From a virus (taxonomy: Duplodnaviria > Heunggongvirae > Uroviricota > Caudoviricetes): a DNA stretch of 64,000 nucleotides. Positions 5,480 to 55,491 of the stretch are shown in pieces. Location of the stretch: IMG/VR virus record IMGVR_UViG_3300045988_149282, positions 1-64,000 of that record, one strand, 5' to 3'. Each line of letters begins with the position of its first letter. Position 1 is the first letter of the stretch. The notes under the pieces are model-generated. The model saw nothing but the letters and a program-made list of their open reading frames with translations, ran no database searches and was not told where the DNA came from. The position numbers were made by a program, and so were the translations under genes.

Positions 5480-5758
5480 TTACGGCAGTTTGCTTAGAAT
5501 TTGCTCTAAATCTTCCTTTGTCATATTAGAGTTCTCATAGATGCGCATGATTTTCTCACGAGCCTTAGCAGAGACTCCAACGGCAGATGAAACTTTGTCA
5601 AATTCAGCCATTGTCATCGCTTCCAGAATGGTATTGATAACTTCAGCCTTAGACATTTTGATGTTTTTTTCTTTTAGTTTCATTTGAAACTTTCCAAGTT
5701 TGTCATTGGCCTTATCGGACAATGCCACCTGACAATAAGTTGTTTTCTTTTCGCTCAT
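5480..5758 (-). CDS. hypothetical small protein (92 aa)
   Basis: Minus-strand ORF starting 2 nt after the helicase stop; hairpin downstream at ~5397-5425. Confidence 0.5.
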   Translation of the reverse strand: MSEKKTTYCQVALSDKANDKLGKFQMKLKEKNIKMSKAEVINTILEAMTMAEFDKVSSAVGVSAKAREKIMRIYENSNMTKEDLEQILSKLP

Positions 5759-5760
5759 AA

Positions 5761-7320
5761 CTAATCTCGTTTCAGAACTCCAAAATCGAATGCGCCATCA
5801 ATAGGCAATACACCTTCTGCAAAGCCAGGTGTGGTGTCGATGATGTGTTTTCGCTCATAAGAGTGAGACAACAGGTATTTGTTGCTAATGTCAATGAAAT
5901 CAGTGATAAAACACACGTTTGCCTGATTCTTCTTGGCTCGTAAGCCACGACCGACACGCTGCCTCATTTCAACTTCTGCTTTCCCACCACCAGCCAGAAT
6001 GACCGCACCAACGCTTGGCACATCAACACCGACATCCAGAATAGTCGAGCCTATTAAAACATCTATTTCGCCAGACGCTAAACTGTTCAGCTTTGCTTGC
6101 CTTGTCGCCTGGTTTGATTCCCCATAGATGAAGTCAACTCTAAGGCCGGACTCCTTCATCATCTCCATCAGGATTTGCCCGTGGCGTTTAAGACGAACCA
6201 GAGTCATGCAATTGAGAGAATGTTGCTTATAGAGCAATGCTTCGCGCACAATGGCCTCGTTACGTCCCAAATTATACACGATCCCCAACTGATAAGCCTT
6301 TTGGTAGGCTGTGCTCATACCTACTCTAAAATTGAGGTGTTTGTTGGCAAGTTCGGCCTTGATTCTGGCCTCGTCTGGCTTGTAGGCAACTTTATGATAA
6401 AGGAAGTATGGTTTTGCCAGAATGCCTCTATCAATCAGGTACTTTTCCGTGACTTTTATTTCAATTCGCCCGGCCACTGCCATCAGGCGCATGTTGGCTT
6501 CCGTCGAATCCTTCATGAACGGCGTGGCTGTAAGCGCCAGACGATAGTCTGCGTTCACACATAATCTGGCGATGTCATAGAAATTAGAGCCTGAAGACTC
6601 ATGCGCCTCTTCCAGAATAAGAAGAGAGACACTTGAAAGGAAGCGTTTCACCAACTCCCGACGTTTGAGGTGGTAGCTTTTCTTATCTGGTGTTGCATCG
6701 CGTGGTGGTTCTTCGAGGAAACTTGCAAGAGTTTGAACTGTAGCGACGTTGATATGTCGTGATACCTGGAACTCACCCGAGCCAATTACTCCAACCTTTT
6801 GGTCCTTTAACCACGGTTCGCCATTTTCGGCGCGGTAGTCGATGGATCTCTGGAAGTTTTCGGCCATTTGAAACATCAGAACAGAGCGGGTTGTTAAAAA
6901 TAATGTCATTCGACCGATACGTGCAGTTGCTTTGCAGGCAACGTTAGATTTCCCGCCACCAGTAGCGATCTGCGCAATCATCATTCCCTCTCGAACCAGT
7001 GTTTCTACTGTCTGATCTTGGTACGCATAATCAGGGTTGTATGGAAATGGGTTAACCGCAGGATTTGGTTTACCCAGCGTCGGGGCTTTGTCTTTGCGGA
7101 TATGAACACATTTGATGCCCGCCTTGTTCAAATTAGCCGCCACGGGCTTGGCAAAGCCAGCAGGGAACGAGTTTTTGCTCCAGTTGAACATTGTGCTTGT
7201 GCCCTTCCAGTCGCCAGCCTCGACTTCGTAGCTCAACATTTGCTGCACCAGTTGCTTTACCTTGTCATCTGCGCCAGAAATAAGCGCATTTACTGCGTTA
7301 GATACAATCCGAACAGTCAT
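5761..7320 (-). CDS. superfamily-2 DNA/RNA helicase (DEAD/DEAH-box, ResIII-like)
   Basis: Walker A (ATGGGKS), DExH motif II (LILEEAHE), motif VI (QRVGRGLRA); RBS AAGGAAAGAGG before ATG at 7320. Confidence 0.85.
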   Translation of the reverse strand: MTVRIVSNAVNALISGADDKVKQLVQQMLSYEVEAGDWKGTSTMFNWSKNSFPAGFAKPVAANLNKAGIKCVHIRKDKAPTLGKPNPAVNPFPYNPDYAYQDQTVETLVREGMMIAQIATGGGKSNVACKATARIGRMTLFLTTRSVLMFQMAENFQRSIDYRAENGEPWLKDQKVGVIGSGEFQVSRHINVATVQTLASFLEEPPRDATPDKKSYHLKRRELVKRFLSSVSLLILEEAHESSGSNFYDIARLCVNADYRLALTATPFMKDSTEANMRLMAVAGRIEIKVTEKYLIDRGILAKPYFLYHKVAYKPDEARIKAELANKHLNFRVGMSTAYQKAYQLGIVYNLGRNEAIVREALLYKQHSLNCMTLVRLKRHGQILMEMMKESGLRVDFIYGESNQATRQAKLNSLASGEIDVLIGSTILDVGVDVPSVGAVILAGGGKAEVEMRQRVGRGLRAKKNQANVCFITDFIDISNKYLLSHSYERKHIIDTTPGFAEGVLPIDGAFDFGVLKRD

Positions 7321-7402
7321 AAACCTCTTTCCTTAGTGCCTTTTGTATGTTATTTGGCTATTATAATAAGTAAGTGATTACTTAGTGGATTGTAGCAATA
7401 AA

Positions 7403-8083
7403 ATGGACGTAAAAATCACGATTTTGCAGGTTGATGTTGCCAACCTTCGCCCGAATACCTGGAACACCAATTCGGTTGGTGCGCAGAATTTCGAAAAACT
7501 GAAAGGTTCTATCGAAAAATTGGGCTTTTTTAAGCCAATTTTGGCTCGTGAGCTTGAAGATGGATTTTTTGAAATCCTCGGCGGCGAACATCGCTGGCGT
7601 GCTGCTATTGAGCAAGGAATTTCAACGGTTCCTGTGCTTTCTGTGGGCAAAATTAGCGATGTCGTGGCAAAACAGATGTCACTGGTGGACAACGAGCGAT
7701 ACGGTGAAGACGACCAAATCGCATTGCAACGCTTCATTGAAGAAATTCAGTCAGAACTTGACTATCAACTGTCTGAAATCGCCCCGTATGACGACGAAAT
7801 CTCGATGGTTTTAGCAAAAGAGGCGGCAATCGACCTTGAAGCACTGGAGGCGTTGTCTCGTGGTAGTGATGAGCCTGTCGATACCGACAAACGAGAGAAA
7901 ACCGAACGTGTGGGTGCGGAACATCAGACCATGCGCTTCAAAGTAACTTTCGATGCGTCAGATCGTGTTGCAGAAACTATAAAAAACATCATCAAAGAGC
8001 AGGCTATTAACACCGGTAATGAAATGGAGAACGCTGGTGAGGCTCTGGTGTGGCTGGTCGACTACTACAAGGAGCGTATGTAA
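7403..8083 (+). CDS. ParB-like nuclease domain protein 1
   Basis: ParB/Srx N-terminal domain signature (...FEILGGEHRWRAAIEQGISTVPVL...); ORF track 7385 (GTG), first ATG at 7403. Confidence 0.75.
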   Translation: MDVKITILQVDVANLRPNTWNTNSVGAQNFEKLKGSIEKLGFFKPILARELEDGFFEILGGEHRWRAAIEQGISTVPVLSVGKISDVVAKQMSLVDNERYGEDDQIALQRFIEEIQSELDYQLSEIAPYDDEISMVLAKEAAIDLEALEALSRGSDEPVDTDKREKTERVGAEHQTMRFKVTFDASDRVAETIKNIIKEQAINTGNEMENAGEALVWLVDYYKERM

Positions 8084-8751
8084 TGACCAAAAAGTTTGAA
8101 ATCGTATATCGCGACCCGGCAGATCTTATTCCCTATGAGATGAATGCCAAAAAGCATGATGAACAGCAGATCAGAGATCTGGCCGCAGCCATTAAAAAGC
8201 GCGGATTTGACCAGCCAATTACGGTCGATAAGAACGACGTAATTATTACTGGCCACGGCCGCCGTGAGGCTGCAATTTTTGCTGGACTTGAGCGCGTACC
8301 GGTTATTGTTCGTGATGATCTGAGTGATGACGAGGTACGTGCAAAGCGCCTTGAAGATAACCGACTTGCCAGCATTGATTACGATGCAATTAAGCTACAG
8401 AAAGAGCTTGAGTCGCTTGTTCTGGACGATATCGAGGTTTTCGGCTTCGAAGAGCGTGAGTTGAATGTTCTCGTTGGCAGTATGACAGAAGAAATGGACA
8501 CCGACTCGCTAGTTATCGATCTTGGCGAAGAAACTAAACGACAGAAGGATGAACACACCGAGATCAGTCGTGAAGTTGCAGCGGAAGAAGTACGTGTTGT
8601 CGACGTATTGGGCTTTAAAACGCTTCCTGCTGGCTCTGCCATTGTTGTTGGTGATTTGCTTGCCCACATGGAAGAAATGACGGGAGAAAGCGGGGTAGAC
8701 GCATTTGTGGCATATGCGGAGAAGATCTCTTCCGGGGAGATGGCTGCATGA
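8083..8751 (+). CDS. ParB-like nuclease domain protein 2
   Basis: ParB box (VIITGHGRREAAIFAGLERVPVIV); start overlaps the upstream stop (TAATG) with AGGAG RBS; acidic C-terminal half. Confidence 0.75.
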   Translation: MTKKFEIVYRDPADLIPYEMNAKKHDEQQIRDLAAAIKKRGFDQPITVDKNDVIITGHGRREAAIFAGLERVPVIVRDDLSDDEVRAKRLEDNRLASIDYDAIKLQKELESLVLDDIEVFGFEERELNVLVGSMTEEMDTDSLVIDLGEETKRQKDEHTEISREVAAEEVRVVDVLGFKTLPAGSAIVVGDLLAHMEEMTGESGVDAFVAYAEKISSGEMAA

Positions 8752-9413
8752 GCAAATACATCATCAACGTATCGTTTCAGACACGCGTAAATAAAACCAC
8801 GCGCACGTTGGAAATCGCTGAGTCGTTCGGGCTTGGCCTGGACGAAAAAGAGTGGACGCTTTACGACAATCTGGAGCTGGAAGTGAAGCAGGGCGATGTG
8901 GTGTACATCACCGGCCAATCCGGTTCCGGCAAATCCGTTGTGCTGCGCGAGTTGCAACGACAGCTGAAGGATGAAGGGCTGTCTGTAGCCTCCATCGATG
9001 ATTTTACCTTCGATAATGAGGTTAACGTCATCGATCAGTTGGGCAAAACGACCAGCGATGCGCTTGGGTTGTTATCTATGGCTGGTCTGAACGATGCATA
9101 TCTGTTTGTTCGCAAGCCTTCTGAAATGTCAGACGGTCAGAAATATCGTCTCAAGATTGCCAAACTGATTGAGTCAGGCGCTAAAGTGTGGGCTGCTGAC
9201 GAGTTCGGTGCTGTTTTAGACCGTGTAACCGCTCAGGTTGTGGCATCTAACCTCCAGCGTGCCGCTCGAAAGGTTGGTGCGACGGTAATGGTGGCGACGA
9301 CTCACGAAGACCTGAAGAACGCGCTGCGCCCGGATATGCAGATCACCAAGCACTACAAAGAACGCGTGAAGGTGGAATATCACAATGGTAGTCATGATGA
9401 GGTCCATTCATGA
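8748..9413 (+). CDS. small ABC-type ATPase (P-loop NTPase)
   Basis: Walker A (GQSGSGKS), ABC-signature-like SDGQKYR, Walker B (VWAADEFGAVLD), H-loop-like TTHEDL; start overlaps upstream stop (ATGA). Confidence 0.65.
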   Translation: MSKYIINVSFQTRVNKTTRTLEIAESFGLGLDEKEWTLYDNLELEVKQGDVVYITGQSGSGKSVVLRELQRQLKDEGLSVASIDDFTFDNEVNVIDQLGKTTSDALGLLSMAGLNDAYLFVRKPSEMSDGQKYRLKIAKLIESGAKVWAADEFGAVLDRVTAQVVASNLQRAARKVGATVMVATTHEDLKNALRPDMQITKHYKERVKVEYHNGSHDEVHS

Positions 9414-10300
9414 CGGACATCATCATTAAACGCTACCGCCCTGAAGAGTTTCCGCGTCATCTGGACTTTCTGGAGCGAATGACTGTTACAAAGGGAACTG
9501 TAGAGGACTGGCACGCTCTTAAGTCGCTTCACTACAAAACAGACGGCAAACCTTTCGCGCCAACTTACTATCGCTGCGAACTTGATGACCGTCTGGTGGG
9601 CGTCGTGGTTATGGCTTACCCGAAACTACTGTTGGCACCTCGCCACCGCATGTTTCCTAAGTTGAAACCAACCACTAATACCACCGTGGCTAACCAGTAC
9701 TGGGGTCGGTACGTGAATAACAACTTTGCGGTGATCAGTCGCTCAGTTGTGGATACTCAGTATCGTGGCGTAGGCGTCTCTTATCGAATGATTAACCTGG
9801 TTAGCAGGATGCATGACCGGCCAATCATTGAGATCCAGTCATCGATGAGCAAATACAATCCCTTCGCCATGAAAGCAGGGTTCAAGTTCATCCGCCCTGA
9901 GCGACCGAAGAGCTATGAAAGTGCACTGCGTGTGTTCCAGCGCCATTTCCGTTCCGACCCGGGTGATAACGAGGCGATCGTCAAAGAGTTGTTCGCAATG
10001 AGCGAGTCTCGTCGTCGCCGTGCACTGCGTGATCTGGTGGCGGACTACCACAAGAACAGTTCCCTGGCAAAAGCTGGGCGGAATCGTGGCACGACGATTC
10101 AGGACATTGCCGACAGTCTGGTGGACGAGGCCAGCATTGTGAAGCTGCTCAAGGACATTCACAACCTGAGCTTTACGTCTCCGTTGTATGGTGTGTACCG
10201 AAACCCTGACTTTGGTCGTCGACTGCCTGACACGCTGCCACTGCTGGCATTCGACAAACAACCTTTGGATAAACCGTTAGAAATTGCTTTACCGGCATAA
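9410..10300 (+). CDS. hypothetical protein, possible GNAT-like acetyltransferase fold
   Basis: Translationally coupled (ATGA) to the ATPase; weak GNAT motif-A-like segment (QYRGVGVSYRMINLV). The fold assignment is tentative. Confidence 0.4.
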   Translation: MTDIIIKRYRPEEFPRHLDFLERMTVTKGTVEDWHALKSLHYKTDGKPFAPTYYRCELDDRLVGVVVMAYPKLLLAPRHRMFPKLKPTTNTTVANQYWGRYVNNNFAVISRSVVDTQYRGVGVSYRMINLVSRMHDRPIIEIQSSMSKYNPFAMKAGFKFIRPERPKSYESALRVFQRHFRSDPGDNEAIVKELFAMSESRRRRALRDLVADYHKNSSLAKAGRNRGTTIQDIADSLVDEASIVKLLKDIHNLSFTSPLYGVYRNPDFGRRLPDTLPLLAFDKQPLDKPLEIALPA

Positions 10301-10309
10301 GGATTTGCC

Positions 10310-10576
10310 ATGACGTTAACCGATAAACAAAAGGACATCATCAAAACGCTCAATCTCGGTTATGAGCGAGGTCATTTACTTGATCTGGACGAATTGCTTG
10401 AAGTTTTGCCGTACAAGACAACCAAGCAAAGTATCCAGTTCTCAATTCGCGCTCTGATAAAAAAGGGGCTGGTGGAGAAAGGGCATACGCGCCAACGCAG
10501 TGACAATCGCTATCACCGCCGAACTCTTGGGTTAACTACTTTAGGTCGAGCCAAAGCGAAGTTACTGGTGATGTAA
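10310..10576 (+). CDS. small basic protein, possible winged-helix DNA-binding protein (88 aa)
   Basis: ORF with AAGGA RBS; basic C-terminus; followed by the 55-bp palindrome at 10601-10655. Confidence 0.4.
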   Translation: MTLTDKQKDIIKTLNLGYERGHLLDLDELLEVLPYKTTKQSIQFSIRALIKKGLVEKGHTRQRSDNRYHRRTLGLTTLGRAKAKLLVM

Positions 10577-10600
10577 TCGGTCTGGGAGCTTATTTAAAGA

Positions 10601-10655
10601 CCTGCTTCTGTATATATAAATAATAAGTAACTTATTAAATATATACGGAAGCAGG
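10601..10655. repeat. 55-bp palindromic element, copy 1 (exact duplicate of 47001..47055)
   Basis: CCTGCTTCTGTATATATAAATAATAAGTAACTTATTAAATATATACGGAAGCAGG; near-perfect inverted repeat (one G-T position) centred on AATAAGTAACTTATT. Confidence 0.8.
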
Positions 10656-10690
10656 CTTCGTAAGACATGCCAGACCTAGTTAAACGCCCC

Positions 10691-10733
10691 AGAAAACAAG
10701 TTGGTTAGCAGAAGCAGTAAACAAGTTGTTTTA
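10691..10733 (+). promoter_or_regulatory. two copies of the conserved palindromic motif AGAAAACAAGTTGTT (candidate operator/promoter element)
   Basis: AGAAAACAAGTTGGTT (10691-10706) and TAAACAAGTTGTTTTA (10718-10733), ~40 nt upstream of the 10772 start; the same motif recurs at 1037-1052, 1087-1100, 1603-1616, 44991-45006, 47921-47936 and (degenerate) ~60528-60545. Confidence 0.5.
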
Positions 10734-40200: not shown

Positions 40201-40456
40201 TCGTAACGGTTATATTGTTGAAATGACATTTAACGTTGGCGGTCAGGAGGCAACTCGCAGTTTCCCGATCAACCCGCGAATGAATATGGGCTCCTACTCG
40301 ATGGAGTTTCGTTTTGCAGCGGATATTCCAGGCAACTATGACAACGTCCCGTTCTTTGTAAGAGCACGTGGTCGGGATGCTACTTGGAACTACCAGTGTT
40401 ATGTAGAAAACATCACTGCCACTGCTTTCCGTACAAACAGCAACTCATTCAGCTAA
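28298..40456 (+). CDS. giant central tail fibre / host specificity protein (J-like, ~4052 aa) with internal coiled-coil plus CBM-like domain array
   Basis: N-terminal J-like region with an FN3-like segment; J-like C-terminal region; between them ~2400 aa of repeated coiled-coil segments each followed by a CBM4/9-like domain (start N-L-x-x-N-x-x-F-E, end Y-x-D-D-V-x-V-x-D-V-T-D). ORF track TTG 28292, first ATG 28298. Confidence 0.85.
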   Translation: MDQFKKKRLPLLIAGAGGKKSSGSSRTPVEADDTVNSRAMASILDLLGEGVVGGLINGAKSIFIDGVALENEDGSFNYSGVTWDFRDGSQDQSPMPGFDFVETPKAVNTQLKTTNAVTVAIDNDDADRVRVIMKFPSLRSIDKKTGDTNGTSVQFKFQLANGNGSFYDVIATGESSSDVKLTAKKTGVYYRSYEIQLPKPGRAYKVRVLRLSADSNDQYLFNDTWVDSIGEIVDTPMNYPNSVLVGLKVNSEQFGSSMPSRSYLIRGLKIRVPSNYDENTNTYNGVWDGTFKLLSSSNPAWILFDLLTNARYGLGKFVSESMIDLGQLYQIGRYCDEEVDDGFGGKEKRFAINTQITSRQDAYRLIQDIAGAFRGMVFWAGGMVNIMQDSPSDPVMLFTNANVKDGLFTYKGSARKDRPSVALITYNNKQDGYKQNVEYVEDQEAMARYGERKTEAVAFGCTSRGQAHRVGLWLLYTARMESDMITFTAGLDASFLMPGETVLIQNKYRAGKRNSGRIVSFTKNSITLDAPVSLKKSGSFIRIINQEGKIVERDINETGDNITKVTFKTALATAEQPVANGVWTITEPDLVPMRARVVAIAQGETPGSFDITVVQNNASKYQAIDNGAALVPENTTVLDPTYSKPSNLVISEGTYLSSPGNLSVKLMLAWEGKSPEYWVSWRRSDEGNVSNWQSARATEEQYEIVNVAENGRYDFQLYSVSFGGKKSEIITAVYQVKGTMTPPGAPTSLTAVGDYRNVVLNWVNPDSVDLAQINVYASKTNKLDTATLIAQAATTTFTHAGLGDNETWYYWIRAVNKRGMVGQPNSNLGTEATTRDVLSFLKDKITSSELGKELLDEIDSKATQEAVDNAIGEVQNSVNESIQQVENDLAQTSSEIKAQVDSVNQSLKEDIKTVNQTIVDNIDAVNQTINTNISNVNSQIEAAKQSIKDGDAALSQEIKNAQSSLTTSLSQTSKDLTAAIQKETNDRIADVNDAAKQAADQLLSAKNELKTSIDSLSEVVTSGDENLARQISQIAAGTGEQFDSLKIWYFDQDAEGWTEDDNGYTPMSVTSDGWLKANNPTSTCRSPNGLTIDAHAYRFIKMRIKKVGNPTWNAKMFWIGADETGWNAGRSVVINEPEYDDKGIAILTLHDLEWRDSTTIRRFRFDFTSGQDTDNYLLFDWIAVGRPTPGAGMAALQEEQQARANADTAEAQARSTLAAQIRGSSESGNLDDIRSGLIYQEKNARITADAAEASARESLQTEFNRNKASVAEELHTLSTEQASQASKITGLQTSLGQKADASAVQTISQKVEEQGNTLKSQGAALSTLDNRVGSVESGVSANSKAITGLQSTVTQQDKTLSSQSESITTLNNSLSDIQSDTDTAKSNPSNLLVNASFERDLAGWSAGNSVSNVIKASAPHSGSKILVCAAGTVQITQSVSVVEGRTYKLSSFVRCTTDAVISSPGNNKLRIGAATLLKEIPIRPENLPKDETWKEVSDTWKATLTGKVDVSIMSSLKTGSQYFDDVGFVDVTDALAIEANASATNALTSRVSSVEGTITSQGQQITSMQNSIKNKADASAVTNLANRVTAAENQISSQSQSITSLSNSLDNANADADASKAIIGNMLKNNSFERGFEGWEYVGWTLLEAQNPKSGKYIIQAGKLASGGDSGCNQTIELQAGKTYRIGAWVRKSADFAINNAGNNKISLRNADLTPIKDIPITGAGLSTNWALISGEYTPAKTASVVVSLRASVASGYMYLDDVFCVDVSNEKAIDATSNALSTLNSTVTQQGKDITSNSNSITSLSNQMVNGRQNMWVRSVYNVQLANNTTEPTFSDINGKAPISIDEVPDAAKLDFASAGSYVIAHYKAFVKVNADTTITMAPGSRVFDDTGAVYVNGVRVAFGNASWNTVSFDLKAGWSTVEFLVNQWTGQAYINLGFKLSEKVAQLNSALGMNALSNAISAVTSNVSTVGDRVTSTSQSVTDLRNSLEQTNANLANKADAQALSTLQNTVSKQGDTISSQGNSITNLNNTLTAARNSGDNLIPNYDFLQGATAWDIQYPAGVAFGNFGDGKAGVKLNRTTTTSPGIFSNNNKPLPLNGQRKYRVVVKAKGVSGAMNMLIRRQNKIGQTDSNYEDKNVTLTSEWQTITWETGLTASNADGQNFKLYAHPANAEIWVDTFKVFDITDEVKIKANSDALSTLSSTVTQQGDKITSQGNSITKLTNDLEAADANIAKKADQSAVTTLTGRVEKTESGLTAANSNITSLSSSLSQQSKRGANLLPDGTFESYAVGHNLSNNRVIVTTDDSHGGNKCIRVTRPNDYNANATDNSDNHIFSGFQVRDNAVFYMECWVKLDANSTAMAENTQISIGLSLQYQDNSWQWPAVTKAAKDLSTAQWTKVSGYLKSTKSGIKQAMVRISIPNVSSVKAGNSFLIDDLVITEVTDAYNAQSTADANANAISTLDSTVSQQGDQITSQGNSITKLTNDLATTNNNVSKKADQSALSVLSGRVDQTESGLSSANSSITALNSSVRAGNATSGDLISNPTFDPEFSQMGFTVVPSSSEGVPANCPYAYVARIAARDHHPNFAAIPATLGDVYEMSALVACGTGSADFNLYLGTATRPSGSVGAPLSSGGNRKASATWQRVTWRFKITQGIVDRGFFRPFLQINQSSPFGTVWYVTDWHLRNVTDSSKVQDSLDATAKAVDSLTSTVNQQGENISSIGTRTTNLENNLRTTNANVAQKADANALTALTNRVTQTEKDINSTSSSVTNLNNKVDAISVGGTNLIKNSGDMTGWSNVVSDTYRGNAVIGATVKAGSGYRDLREITLESPVDAGEYVYSFYAKGGVAGQIMTAFFYNPNTTTSIETSQGAKGNNSDGRAQFTLTTSWARYWVKWKQTPTTSTKRLILCRIESNTSKDQTVYINSPKFEVGNVVSDWNESPSDSASASAVDSLTTKVNQQGTSISSIGNRTTSLENGLSTAQNNIAKKADASALQDLRNTVTSQGDDLTAANSSITSLHASMNRRTVFTVTARGNGNSVTHGVFDESGKNLFTPGRSWALVTFAKHSDGSTVIATSKTYDVFGSANNGATMSADIEALASGTYVCVLTFDEPTGNRGKVLSALESLGGTSEVVNSLPYRGAYILLGRKGMKPGDGLELRAPTGGDGTAHISTSVEFVNGVMMGLGAAGGVMMKADANASAITTLQNTVKTQGDNIDSLSSSTTALENSLASSNASVDAASQIPGNLIVNPSFERGTEGYTGWSGIATVATLQVPHLGTKAAKLAAGGSAGVGQKISFKKDRSYKIGIWAKQDPNTTIQSTDNTKFRVADGTGLIASKVYGPFTSNWQEVSWTWKATKDVLADVQFTAFLSAGAMYFDDFYVVDVTDSVETQANSSAITKLDSRVTKTENDITSQGSQVTQLKNDLATTNTNVSKKADAAALTALTNRVTQNEKEIGTQSSQTTSLKNSLSTVQAMGSNPWFDGSLETYSENQQISGSRAVVVSSQKRSGTKSLRVSRGAGEGGNSDKTIGKWIALRENAVFRIELWAMMPADQSPSSGWSTLVGLQTQNAANNNNWPTAITINEAALGARGAWKKFTGTLRVAAGHTRGAFWVSTRGTTGTGTPGYDLYIDDVVVTDITDAKEAQDSANSNASALTSLTSRVTNVEGQVTSQASQLSSLTSQVNDASSKVDQMAQTITNNEKTQSSLNTSLQSQIDAQASANIKNQTELNNATTSMAAIKSTQQTQATTISALSQQQTNLTAQVGGQSAELQELKKTVVENGNVNSTWMVKMETNSNGKKYAAGIALGIDGKNLQSQFLVQTDRFGLINTSNGNTTTPFVIENGVAYINAAVIKDGSITNAKIGGEIRSDNFVNGSNGWRIGKDGSSQFNNAIFRGHIEARSGTFKGTLEAQNFIGDIAVARRYAGLSFRRNNTVQRDGRYQNRGYGMTIVLSCTLIYQVTGGNEDRNGYIVEMTFNVGGQEATRSFPINPRMNMGSYSMEFRFAADIPGNYDNVPFFVRARGRDATWNYQCYVENITATAFRTNSNSFS

Positions 40457-45041: not shown

Positions 45042-45710
45042 ATGACCAAGATCTTTGTGGTTGGCGGCACAAAGGGCGGGCCTGGCAAATCCACCGTTGC
45101 CCAGCAAATTGCCGTTTGCCTGAAAGTCAAAAAGAAGAAGAAGGTTTATATTACCGATATAGATATTCAGCGCACGACAACGAGCTGGTGTGAAGACCGT
45201 CGACAGAACGAAGACCTTGAGCTGATTCCTTTTGCATACGTTCAGGATGACATCATTAAGCACCTAAAATCGCTTCAGGGTAGAGCTGAGTTTGTAGTGG
45301 TAGATGCTGGTGGCTTCGACTCCGAAATTCAGCGACAAGCGATGCTGATGGCTGACGTTATCATTATCCCGCTGCGTCCTAAGCGTCGTGATTTGAAATC
45401 TTTACGTGACATCGATCCTATTATCGACAATGTTCGCAATGTAAACGATAAAGTGAAGGTCCGCGCGGTCATGAACCAGTGCCCGGCTTTGCCATCACAA
45501 GTGTCTCGCATTCTGGCGGCTAAAGAGATTGTTGAGACGTTTGGCATCGAGTCTGCGCCAGTCAATCTATATAACCGCAACGTCTATGATGATGCGGAAG
45601 AGTCTGGTCGCTCTATCTTTGAAATGACCGGTAGCGAGCGCGACAAAAAGGCGGAAGCCGAGTTTGAAGAATTTGTAGATTATCTGTTGAGTCTGGAGGA
45701 AGAAGAATAA
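45042..45710 (+). CDS. parA: ParA/Soj-family partition ATPase
   Basis: Deviant Walker A (GGTKGGPGKST) typical of ParA/MinD; size ~222 aa suggests a type Ib ParA; conserved upstream motif AGAAAACAAGTTGTTT at 44991-45006. Confidence 0.85.
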   Translation: MTKIFVVGGTKGGPGKSTVAQQIAVCLKVKKKKKVYITDIDIQRTTTSWCEDRRQNEDLELIPFAYVQDDIIKHLKSLQGRAEFVVVDAGGFDSEIQRQAMLMADVIIIPLRPKRRDLKSLRDIDPIIDNVRNVNDKVKVRAVMNQCPALPSQVSRILAAKEIVETFGIESAPVNLYNRNVYDDAEESGRSIFEMTGSERDKKAEAEFEEFVDYLLSLEEEE

Positions 45711-46069
45711 TGTCCATGAAAATGGGTGACCTAGCAAAGCGCAAAGAGCCTGATGCACCGGCTAAGAACACAACTCCTTTGCGCCAACCAGTCAGACCAC
45801 AGGGACGCCCGACTCGTGGCAAAGAGAAAATTAAAAGCCGCACAATGTCACTGGAGGACGAATACTTCGAACTGCTGGAGATGATGAAGTTCATCCCTCG
45901 CTTCGAGAAGTTCACTCGTTCTGACGTGATTCGAGCAGCCATTTTCCATCTGGCAGAGAAGTCACCGCAGGAAATCGAGGACATCGTGAAATTGAATGAG
46001 GCGATCACCGCTGCCGATGTCACGATGCGTACCGATGAAATCAAACGAGAGTTGATGAAGAAAGGTTAA
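45710..46069 (+). CDS. partition partner protein (candidate centromere-binding protein, ParG/RHH-like)
   Basis: Start overlaps parA stop (TAATG); basic disordered N-terminus with structured C-terminal region, as expected for a small ParA partner. Confidence 0.5.
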   Translation: MSMKMGDLAKRKEPDAPAKNTTPLRQPVRPQGRPTRGKEKIKSRTMSLEDEYFELLEMMKFIPRFEKFTRSDVIRAAIFHLAEKSPQEIEDIVKLNEAITAADVTMRTDEIKRELMKKG

Positions 46070-46889: not shown

Positions 46890-47000
46890 TATTGCATCTC
46901 TTTGCTACTGACTAATGCGTTCTATTTTACACATAAGTTTTTAATCAATTTAACAGGCTCAAAGTGTAGAGCTTCTGGGCGTCTAAGACGACAAGTTATG

Positions 47001-47055
47001 CCTGCTTCTGTATATATAAATAATAAGTAACTTATTAAATATATACGGAAGCAGG
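47001..47055. repeat. 55-bp palindromic element, copy 2 (exact duplicate of 10601..10655)
   Basis: Identical 55-mer located between the GIY-YIG gene and the replication module. Confidence 0.8.
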
Positions 47056-47171
47056 TCTTTTAAAAGACACCACCAGAACAACTCCCTTCCGTTTCCACTT
47101 CCAAAAACTGCCACCAGTCGCTATCATCCGCTCATTGTGATAAGTAAGTAACTACCTACCAGGTGAGCCAC

Positions 47172-54863: not shown

Positions 54864-54938
54864 GATGGTGTAGCTCAGCGGTAGAGCAGTTGGCTGTTAA
54901 CCAACTGGTCGGTGGTTCGAATCCACCCACCATCGCCA
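54864..54938 (+). tRNA. tRNA-Asn (anticodon GTT)
   Basis: Hand-folded cloverleaf: 7-bp acceptor GATGGTG/CACCATC, D-arm GCTC/GAGC, anticodon loop CTGTTAA, T-loop TTCGAAT, encoded CCA. Confidence 0.8.
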
Positions 54939-54943
54939 ATTTA

Positions 54944-55030
54944 GGGGAGTTAGTCCGTAGAGGTAGCGGTGTAGACTGTAAATCTACTGTCATGGCGACT
55001 CGGGTGGTTCGACTCCATCACTCCCCACCA
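54944..55030 (+). tRNA. tRNA-Tyr (anticodon GTA), class II with long variable arm
   Basis: Acceptor GGGGAGT/ACTCCCC, anticodon stem GTAGA/TCTAC with loop CTGTAAA, long variable arm, T-loop TTCGACT, encoded CCA. Confidence 0.75.
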
Positions 55031-55034
55031 AATT

Positions 55035-55110
55035 GCCGGTTTAGCTCAGTTGGTAGAGCGCCTGCCTTGTAAGCAGGATGTCAGCGGTTCGAGTCCGTTA
55101 ACCGGCACCA
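55035..55110 (+). tRNA. tRNA-Thr (anticodon TGT)
   Basis: Acceptor GCCGGTT/AACCGGC, D-arm TAGCTCAGTTGGTAGAGC, anticodon loop CTTGTAA, T-loop TTCGAGT, encoded CCA. Confidence 0.8.
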
Positions 55111-55404
55111 ACATAATATTGAGAACATTGGCGTAACGGGTTCATATCCCAATTTATGAATATAATGTTGCGTTGCAGCGTGACAACCAGTGTTCTCAAC
55201 ATTGTGGTGAATGCACAGGCTGATGTGCGACGTAGAAGCAAGCGGATGAACTGCCTGAAGGCCGCTAACGTAGGCAATGCCGGAGATCAGCACCGGCCAT
55301 CACAATTTGGCTCTCTTGCAACAGCATAACGCTGAAATACGTCCAACCTGGTGCGGTCTGATCACCCGCCGTTAGCTCCACGAAACGGAGCACACAACAC
55401 AATT

Positions 55405-55491
55405 GGAGAGTAGGGAGCATGGTGCTCAAGCGGTCTTGAAAACCGTCCCATTGTGCAAACGATGATGGTTCGATTCCATTACTCTCCGCCA
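55405..55491 (+). tRNA. tRNA-Ser (anticodon TGA), class II (candidate)
   Basis: Acceptor GGAGAGT/ACTCTCC, anticodon stem GCGGT/ACCGT with loop CTTGAAA, long variable region, T-loop TTCGATT, CCA. D-arm atypical, hence lower confidence. Confidence 0.6.

Follow-up and report, generated by a model that had tools for sequence, protein, structure and literature searches.

The 64,000-nucleotide stretch analysed here (positions 1 to 64,000 of the IMG/VR record IMGVR_UViG_3300045988_149282; referred to below as the window) derives from an SSU5-like phage-plasmid of Escherichia coli. Immediately upstream of its terminase region the element carries an operon of translationally coupled genes for two ParB-like proteins (ParB1 and ParB2), a soluble ABC-type ATPase and a GNAT-fold acyltransferase. 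The products belong to the ParB/Srx, ABC ATPase and GNAT superfamilies, respectively, and the ABC–GNAT pair to a catalogued yet uncharacterised family of fused proteins. ParB, ABC and GNAT probably act as one machine. The reading that we favour, albeit tentatively and at somewhat less than an even chance, is that this machine uses ATP to drive a DNA-targeted transfer of acyl groups onto DNA immediately before it is packaged, late in the lytic cycle.

All four plus-strand open reading frames (ORFs) that the original prediction had placed between the divergent helicase gene and the genes for the TerS-like protein and the large terminase subunit (TerL) are present, and reading the junctions from the sequence confirmed that stop and start overlap at each of them. 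At the first junction, TAATG, the ParB1 stop codon TAA (8081–8083) shares a base with the ParB2 start codon ATG (8083–8085), the start of ParB2 being corrected to 8083 (not 8050 or 8080), while the ParB2/ABC and ABC/GNAT junctions each consist of a common ATGA (8748–8751 and 9410–9413). Each of the four ORFs matches a PHROG family (E-values from 1e-59 to 1e-165), and the gene order is conserved at 41–44% protein identity in isolated phages of Pseudomonas (nickie), Rhizobium and Stenotrophomonas as well as in an Ectothiorhodospira element. Therefore, the four genes are real and not chance ORFs. The coupling of the four genes thus stood, but the operon is not limited to them: a fifth member, encoding a winged-helix (wHTH) protein of 88 amino acids (aa), begins 9 nt past the GNAT stop codon and is conserved in relatives, following the GNAT gene in 18 of the 30 IMG/VR loci in which the ABC and GNAT parts are encoded by separate genes (split form).

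The order shared by the relatives is helicase (on the minus strand), ParB, ParB, ABC, zero to three small variable genes, GNAT, wHTH, TerS-like, TerL and portal. In the SSU5 supergroup the operon is always located directly 5' of the TerS–TerL–portal genes; the TerS-like and TerL genes are conserved downstream neighbours outside of the operon proper. The ABC/GNAT junction of the relatives appears to be a hotspot for these small, unrelated genes, which interrupt an otherwise fixed operon; examples are Phage_gp49_66 and RyR-domain proteins in Ectothiorhodospira and, in Klebsiella, a protein of 183 aa, whereas the E. coli/SSU5 form has no such gene. Over positions 7300–10700 the window is 98–99% identical to Escherichia phages Cyrano (OV696614), PhiR41_1 (PV340561) and CMS-2020a; identity falls to 85% for Salmonella phage SSU5 and to ∼81% for Klebsiella phage-plasmids. 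In records of the Cyrano, PhiR41_1, SSU5 and Klebsiella type the four genes are named, in order, 'ParB', 'ParB-like nuclease' or 'DNA modification methylase', 'ABC transporter', and 'MK0520 protein, ABC-type ATPase fused to a predicted acetyltransferase domain'.

The ParB-like N-terminal domains predicted for two consecutive proteins were recovered with the Pfam model ParB_N (PF02195), which scored 50.0 bits for ParB1 and 35.2 bits for ParB2 (cut-off 26.3), and sequence matches in PDB were to Spo0J, ParB and Noc (E-values from 1e-9 to 1e-5). ParB1 and ParB2 are paralogues, 33% identical over the N-terminal domain, and are built alike: a ParB/Srx N-domain is joined by an acidic linker to a conserved C-terminal domain of ∼50 aa. 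The beta-alpha-alpha pattern of the latter brought a ribbon-helix-helix fold to mind, a possibility for which Pfam and PDB profile searches offered no support. Neither protein matched HTH_ParB or another helix-turn-helix (HTH) model in the Pfam search at E≤0.1, whereas a genuine ParB encoded in one of the related loci (L057) matched PF17762 in the same kind of search. The motifs of the ParB CTPase pocket read GEHRWRA and DNER in ParB1, and GHGRREA and DNRL in ParB2 (degenerate relative to the canonical GERRxRA and ENxxR). The GxxR and D-N positions of this nucleotide pocket are the only ones invariant across both paralogue families, and binding of a nucleoside triphosphate (NTP) by ParB1 and ParB2 is plausible. 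Judging from sequence comparisons, ParB2 appears closest to the ParB domain of phage ParB–methyltransferase fusions: it matches the N-terminus of the PADLOC model MTase_II (PDLC03229; E-value of 3e-17), and the N-terminus of phrog_498 matches ParB2 and ParB1 with E-values of 1e-31 and 7e-17, respectively.

The third protein displays the Walker A, signature, Walker B and H-loop motifs expected of an ABC-like ATPase (GQSGSGKS at residue 56, SDGQ at 128, VWAADE at 147 and THE at 185), Walker B including the catalytic glutamate, and scores 50.2 bits against ABC_tran (Pfam cut-off of 25). All catalytic motifs of the ATPase are intact. The 296-aa protein, for which a weak GNAT-like motif had been noted, gives only a sub-threshold match to Pfam GNAT at the sequence level (E-value of 0.037), and nevertheless has the GNAT fold, with the β4–α3 pyrophosphate-binding loop (Q/R-x-x-G-x-G/A) in place. 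The order of its secondary structure elements corresponds to a single GNAT domain with two insertions, at residues ∼70–105 and, helical and rich in arginine, at ∼165–255, after which strands β6 and β7 resume at 259–277. The loop for the pyrophosphate of coenzyme A (CoA), R119-G-V-G122, and ∼35 further GNAT positions are invariant down to 41% identity. Foldseek matches of this protein include the nucleic-acid-modifying GNATs TmcA/NAT10 (2zpa, 9j3c, 9aym) and Mom; Mom is the best match among viral models, and the TmcA match (TM-score of 0.31) is confined to the GNAT core. The protein could catalyse acyl transfer, for which either acyl-CoA or, as in Mom or Fem transferases, aminoacyl-tRNA could serve as a donor. 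The enzymatic partner that the original prediction had given to the ParB-like proteins is thus present, in the form of an intact ABC ATPase and a GNAT-fold acyltransferase.

A profile of the GNAT protein retrieved 911 cluster representatives, many of which are 440–500 aa long, with the match at residues ∼200–480 and ABC_tran in front of it. Further searches with a profile of the fused proteins yielded 2099 proteins at E≤1e-10, mostly from Bathyarchaeia, Nitrososphaerota and Thermoproteota, with some from Firmicutes. The JGI name of the fused proteins, 'ABC-type ATPase with predicted acetyltransferase domain', is also given to both of the split genes; we take the family to be COG2401. The fused-protein profile matches the window-type split genes at model positions 14–229 (ABC) and 221–468 (GNAT), and split and fused forms have the motifs SDGQKYR, (F/L)HY(R/K), YRG(I/V)G and YNPF in common, the R-G-x-G CoA loop and the GNAT fold being invariant in both. 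Since these motifs are shared, the ABC and GNAT genes of the window represent the two halves of the fused protein, cut at the linker. By far most relatives have the two halves in a single polypeptide. The fused form was found in 43 of 80 IMG/VR loci (30 others being split) and in 78 of 80 loci from GTDB genomes, and the ParB paralogues accompany the split form in 24 of the 30 split IMG/VR loci.

In at least eight cases ParB, ABC and GNAT parts are joined in single ORFs of 638–699 aa (L057, L118, L139 and L147, and cluster representatives P0315, P0342, P0344 and P0347). The N-termini of these triple fusions were missed by Pfam ParB_N and matched by the ParB1/2 profile with E-values of 1e-8 to 1e-11; comparison of this profile with the N-terminus of L057 using hhalign gave a probability of 97.3% (E-value of 2e-11). 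The triple fusions, along with the translational coupling, are the strongest evidence that the three parts act together. Other unusual architectures of the fused family are an uninterrupted ORF of 1260 aa which joins a family-B DNA polymerase (PolB) to ABC and GNAT (L034:3580–7362, P0321), an ABC domain interrupted behind Walker B by a LAGLIDADG intein (P0284) and a TFIIB repeat at the C-terminus (P0275); P0300 is a further protein of unusual architecture. In full-text literature searches, no study was retrieved that describes, functionally or comparatively, the module, the fused family or the linkage to the terminase.

Members of the family come from tailed viruses and proviruses, both bacterial and archaeal. 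The setting was viral or proviral in eight of the nine contexts examined; the ninth (L015) has ordinary cellular genes around it and is not callable as proviral. The GTDB species genomes contain at least 358 relatives; the 78 fused genome loci are mostly from Bathyarchaeia, and some metagenome-assembled genomes (MAGs) have several copies. In 42 of these 78 archaeal genome loci the gene directly upstream, in the same orientation, is TerL, and in 35 of those 42 the two genes abut or overlap (gap of ≤9 nt). For the fused IMG/VR loci TerL lies immediately upstream in 15 of 43 and within three genes in 23 of 43. The adjacency counts are lower bounds, TerL having been recognised solely by phmmer with three TerL queries, and the neighbour statistics derive from a crude ORF caller that at times picks antisense ORFs. 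The original prediction had set the module apart from ordinary packaging machinery. This is contradicted by the tight, often overlapping linkage to TerL, which is the strongest conserved feature of the family, and on present evidence the function of the module is not separable from packaging.

Some lineages display further regularities around the fused gene. In Firmicute prophages (L009 from Desulfofarcimen, L012 from Heliorestis) the order is integrase, ABC–GNAT, Amidoligase_2, GGACT (gamma-glutamylcyclotransferase), TerL and portal, and the Amidoligase_2/GGACT arrangement is also listed for L016, L017 and L099; these neighbours hint at a longer modification pathway with amino-acid or peptide adducts. 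In proviruses of the Nitrososphaerota type (thaumarchaeal proviruses L010, L013, L014, L100 and L102) the fused gene is the penultimate viral one and is followed by a gene for a staphylococcal-nuclease-like protein (SNase) at the border between provirus and host. In one phage the ABC–GNAT gene adjoins DnaE. Bathyarchaeia MAGs (L099–L178) contain multiple copies of a conserved tailed-provirus module that ends with TerL and then ABC–GNAT; one MAG has five contigs with it (L116, L132, L159, L161 and L165) and two others have three each, suggesting either that the provirus family is very successful or that the element has been domesticated.

The linkage to TerL would also suit a module that acts on proteins. 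A DNA-tethered ATPase–GNAT complex might acetylate DNA-bound proteins at packaging, stripping or regulating them so that naked DNA can be threaded into the capsid, a reading that we consider unlikely. Its candidate substrates would be viral (TerS, TerL or portal) or nucleoid proteins of the host, such as HU and H-NS, with histones or Alba in their place in archaea. It is in archaea that the family is most abundant, with translational coupling to TerL, and the links to PolB and DnaE would also fit a clearing of chromatin ahead of DNA motors. Direct evidence for protein acylation is lacking, however, no candidate substrate is conserved across the bacterial and archaeal hosts, and we know of no ABC ATPase-coupled protein acetyltransferase.

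Taken at face value, the gene names and the ParB_N and ABC_tran matches describe a plasmid partition ParB pair ('ParB-like partition protein') next to the ATP-binding subunit of an ABC transporter ('ABC transporter'). This annotation is effectively excluded. In line with the original prediction, the set is not a partition complex: ParB1 and ParB2 are devoid of an HTH domain, no ParA gene is adjacent, and the real partition locus of the element is located at 45042–46069, ∼35 kb from the operon, where a ParA-like ATPase gene overlaps that for a 119-aa partner. Expression in lysogens of Cyrano, a 99%-identical relative of the window element, separates the two loci. RNA-seq gave 50 fragments per kilobase per million (FPKM) for the ParA-like gene and 89 FPKM for its partner, while the four operon genes (CYRAN_119–122) were at 5.0, 9.5, 9.2 and 8.0 FPKM, against a prophage median of 9.8 (PMC9928086, S1 table). 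TerS and TerL, at 7.1 and 8.4 FPKM, were level with the operon genes, whereas the homologues of the 92-aa protein and the UvsW-like helicase encoded on the other side of the divergent intergenic region reached 114 and 46 FPKM, so that expression on the two sides of the region shared by helicase and ParB1 is very different in the lysogen. The operon is at the prophage background in the lysogen, and its function is therefore one of the lytic cycle. Conservation of the operon in the isolated phages of Pseudomonas, Rhizobium and Stenotrophomonas likewise speaks against partition.

Nor is the set a transporter. There is no permease gene, no membrane segment was detected in any ORF of the operon (Kyte-Doolittle over 19 residues, maximum ≤1.46), and the ABC domain is joined to GNAT in thousands of relatives. 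An Mrp/ApbC-like P-loop ATPase ('MinD' in Cyrano) is encoded in PhiR41_1, outside the window (L096:26801–27901), and is 48–59% identical to copies in other phage records. It was considered as an orphan ParA and rejected, as it resembles host Mrp, is confined among SSU5-like elements to the E. coli subgroup and is apparently a moron.

Between the wHTH and TerS-like genes lies a 57-bp palindrome, GCCTGCTTCTGTATATATAAATAATAAGTAACTTATTAAATATATACGGAAGCAGG, which occurs twice in the window in identical form (10600–10656 and 47000–47056), the second copy being located in a divergent intergenic region that adjoins the ParA locus and the gene for a DnaB-like helicase. Upstream of ParB1, the motif ATAATAAGTAAGTGATTACTTA (7363–7384) is a half-motif related to the core of the palindrome, and the 12-mer ATAATAAGTAAS has four occurrences in the window versus 0.31 expected. 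In Klebsiella, Rhizobium and metagenomic relatives the wHTH/TerS interval likewise holds a long palindrome with an AT-rich centre, albeit of different sequence. The linear records of SSU5 and Cyrano both end within the palindrome, which could be an operator, a ParB loading site, a packaging site or a genome terminus.

These features bear on the distinctly unlikely possibility that the module is a non-catalytic or ATPase-only packaging accessory, which would recognise or prepare the site where packaging starts, such as the long palindrome that precedes TerS, and pass the DNA to the terminase, with the GNAT protein in a structural or ligand-sensing role. Adjacency to TerL is tight throughout the family, fused IMG/VR genes frequently lie at viral contig ends or provirus borders (16 of 43 are ≤300 bp from the contig 3' end), and a long palindrome in which the SSU5 and Cyrano records terminate is kept between operon and TerS. 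ParB-domain proteins beside terminases are common in other phages, as in DLP3 (PMC7326821). Yet the presence of a separate TerS-like gene means that the basic packaging set is already complete, and the same palindrome at 47 kb, in the replication/partition region, is more likely an operator than a pac site. Invariance of the CoA loop and ∼35 other GNAT positions over more than 55% sequence divergence argues for catalysis.

An enzymatic role unrelated to viral DNA, in anti-defence or host takeover, appears very unlikely. The module would in that case acetylate, for example, a signalling nucleotide, an antibiotic, a tRNA or a protein of host immunity. Roles of this kind are known for phage GNATs, with AcrVA5 and tRNA-acetylating toxins as examples; a position at the genome end could suit early-entering genes, and the small genes inserted between ABC and GNAT differ among relatives. 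Against this, the module is a core one, syntenic across a deep viral lineage and not a variable accessory gene, it is co-oriented and coupled with late packaging genes, and its ParB and PolB fusions point to DNA. There is also no consistent link to tRNA genes and no PADLOC-type relationship.

A DNA-modification or anti-restriction module, as originally proposed, remains the leading idea in view of the enzymatic partner and the methyltransferase-type ParB domains. We favour acylation of DNA because a lytic, TerL-linked complex combines DNA-associated ParB/Srx proteins, an intact ABC ATPase and a GNAT protein with an intact donor loop, and because TmcA/NAT10 and Mom provide precedent. The likeness of ParB2 to ParB–methyltransferase fusions, the PolB fusions, the DnaE neighbour, the intein variant and the basic GNAT protein with its Arg-rich insertion speak for a DNA context. 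In the proposed scheme, the five genes would constitute one lytic-phase machine working on viral DNA at the transition from replication to packaging. ParB1 and ParB2, by analogy with ParB–methyltransferase fusions and DpdB, would serve as an NTP-gated DNA-binding adaptor or clamp and recruit the soluble ABC ATPase and the acyltransferase to DNA. ATP-driven closure of an ABC dimer would present the substrate to the GNAT active site, where the acceptor would receive an acyl group donated by acyl-CoA or, as with Mom, an aminoacyl group. The acceptor would most likely be a base in DNA on its way into the capsid, which would then be protected in the next host. We infer the physical complex, DNA as the site of action and the coupling to ATP; the choice of a DNA base over a DNA-bound protein as the acceptor is speculative.

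Several observations weigh against acylation of DNA. A packaging role without DNA modification explains the adjacency to TerL equally well, and there are no reports of a modified base in any phage with the module. SSU5-type genomes already possess ordinary DNA methyltransferases. The likeness of the GNAT protein to Mom, TmcA and NAT10 is limited to the generic GNAT core, with Foldseek scores barely above those of small-molecule and protein acetyltransferases. A ParB domain or ParB neighbour is present in just one of the 43 fused IMG/VR loci; since most fused members are without ParB, DNA targeting by ParB is not universal in the family. Finally, the amidoligase and gamma-glutamylcyclotransferase neighbours in Firmicute prophages could mean peptide or small-molecule chemistry.

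The more specific proposal, that ParB–ABC–GNAT is an unrecognised ATP-dependent DNA acylation system of tailed viruses, which leaves an acyl or aminoacyl mark on bases as DNA passes to the terminase, is possible but doubtful. If true, it would define a new class of viral epigenetic or anti-restriction modification found in viruses of bacteria and archaea alike and represented by hundreds of proviral copies in Bathyarchaeia and Nitrososphaerota. If the favoured reading is right, the 'partition protein' and 'ABC transporter' genes of every SSU5-type phage-plasmid encode a conserved late enzyme complex coupled to packaging, and a widespread mis-annotation would be corrected, which matters where phage-plasmid 'partition' and 'transport' genes serve typing. 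SSU5-type elements are common in clinical E. coli, Klebsiella and Salmonella, and the fused form, without an assigned role, is among the most regular TerL neighbours in archaeal proviruses. Working out the module could reveal new DNA or chromatin modification chemistry, restriction evasion or DNA clearing for packaging, and it is experimentally tractable, Cyrano and PhiR41_1 being inducible in E. coli.

The positions of the genes and sites discussed are collected in Table 1. Elsewhere in the window, an ORF of 4054 aa (28292–40456, plus strand), presumably a giant tail or fibre protein, is located downstream of an ORF of tape-measure size (21187–25728), and four tRNA genes (Asn, Tyr, Thr and Ser) are clustered at 54864–55491.

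Table 1. Genes and candidate sites of the operon region and the partition locus in the window, and genes inserted at the ABC/GNAT junction of related loci.
Feature	Position	Strand	Remarks
92-aa protein	5480–5758	-	phrog_1466, weak repressor-like match; divergent from operon
SF2/UvsW-like helicase	5761–7320	-	Divergent from operon
Divergent intergenic region helicase/ParB1	7321–7402	.	Holds motif ATAATAAGTAAGTGATTACTTA at 7363–7384
ParB1, 226 aa	7403–8083	+	Pfam ParB_N, E 3e-13; phrog_723, E 1e-78; GEHRWRA and DN motifs
ParB2, 222 aa	8083–8751	+	Pfam ParB_N, E 1e-8; phrog_930, E 1e-112; phrog_498 'DNA methyltransferase' N-terminus, E 1e-31
Soluble ABC-type ATPase, 221 aa	8748–9413	+	ABC_tran, E 5e-13
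GNAT-fold acyltransferase, 296 aa, pI 9.8	9410–10300	+	CoA-loop motif RGVGVS conserved
Basic winged-helix (wHTH) protein, 88 aa	10310–10576	+	phrog_900, E 2e-45; weak LexA, Lrs14 and Sta1 wHTH matches
57-bp near-perfect palindrome	10600–10656	.	Between wHTH and TerS-like genes; candidate cis site
TerS-like protein, 210 aa	10772–11404	+	phrog_867; 'Terminase small subunit' in Cyrano
TerL, large terminase, 418 aa	11404–12660	+	Terminase_6N; phrog_2
ParA-like ATPase, 222 aa	45042–45710		phrog_164; ∼35 kb from operon
Overlapping partner of ParA-like gene, 119 aa	45710–46069		phrog_5111; 'RelE/ParE putative toxin' in Cyrano
Inserts between ABC and GNAT in relatives	L003:5453–6004; L004:6961–7999; L006:5161–5496; L007:4543–5398		

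Among characterised systems, TmcA and NAT10 couple an ATPase to GNAT-catalysed acetylation of a nucleic-acid base. These tRNA/rRNA cytidine N4-acetyltransferases resemble the module in the combination of ATPase and GNAT, the core of the latter being found by Foldseek, but differ in their RecD-like helicase ATPase, DUF1726, tRNA-binding tail, RNA substrate and want of a ParB partner. There is no sequence similarity, and searches of the operon proteins against NCBIfam and Pfam gave no TmcA-related matches. A link to tRNA of the TmcA kind, considered on account of the tRNA-Met gene beside the cluster in nickie, was discarded, as the four tRNA genes of the window lie 45 kb away and none is for tRNA-Met. 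Mom, the DNA adenine carbamoylmethylase of phage Mu, is a late phage enzyme of GNAT fold that modifies adenine in DNA before packaging (PMC13219725, PMC7261163). Unlike the module, it is a single small protein that uses glycyl-tRNA and has neither an ATPase nor a ParB partner (PMC13219725); there is no detectable sequence homology between Mom and the GNAT protein of the window, and the structural margin over generic GNATs is small.

ParB–methyltransferase fusions of phages and plasmids share with the module a ParB domain attached to a DNA-modifying catalytic unit and are often encoded beside terminase genes. They rely on an S-adenosylmethionine-dependent methyltransferase, however, whereas the window module has an ABC ATPase and GNAT, and its ParB proteins are mostly separate, being fused in a minority of relatives. 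In the Dpd 7-deazaguanine system (DpdA/DpdB), compared here by description, DpdB is a ParB-like ATPase/NTPase that helps a DNA base-modifying enzyme (PMC12839542). The likeness consists in a ParB-like NTPase beside a base-modifying enzyme, and the differences in transglycosylase chemistry and in Dpd being a host defence system and not a viral late operon. ParB CTPase clamps of the ParABS and KorB type have in common with ParB1 and ParB2 the ParB_N domain with box I, GxxR and (D/E)N motifs, but ParB1 and ParB2 lack the HTH domain that binds parS, a ParA partner and expression in the plasmid state.

The suggestion of nucleic-acid surveillance found nothing in its favour. PADLOC 2.0 returned only a partial P-loop match (mad3, residues 31–68) and the ParB-like N-terminus of MTase_II, with no match for the GNAT protein, and a known defence system was accordingly discarded. 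The module is placed outside ParABS, ABC transporters, TmcA/NAT10 and the PADLOC defence systems, and probably outside the Mom clade. Its direct homologues are in the fused ABC–GNAT family, to the N- and C-terminal halves of which the ABC and GNAT proteins of the window correspond; in the window these halves are instead encoded by two overlapping genes behind two ParB paralogues.

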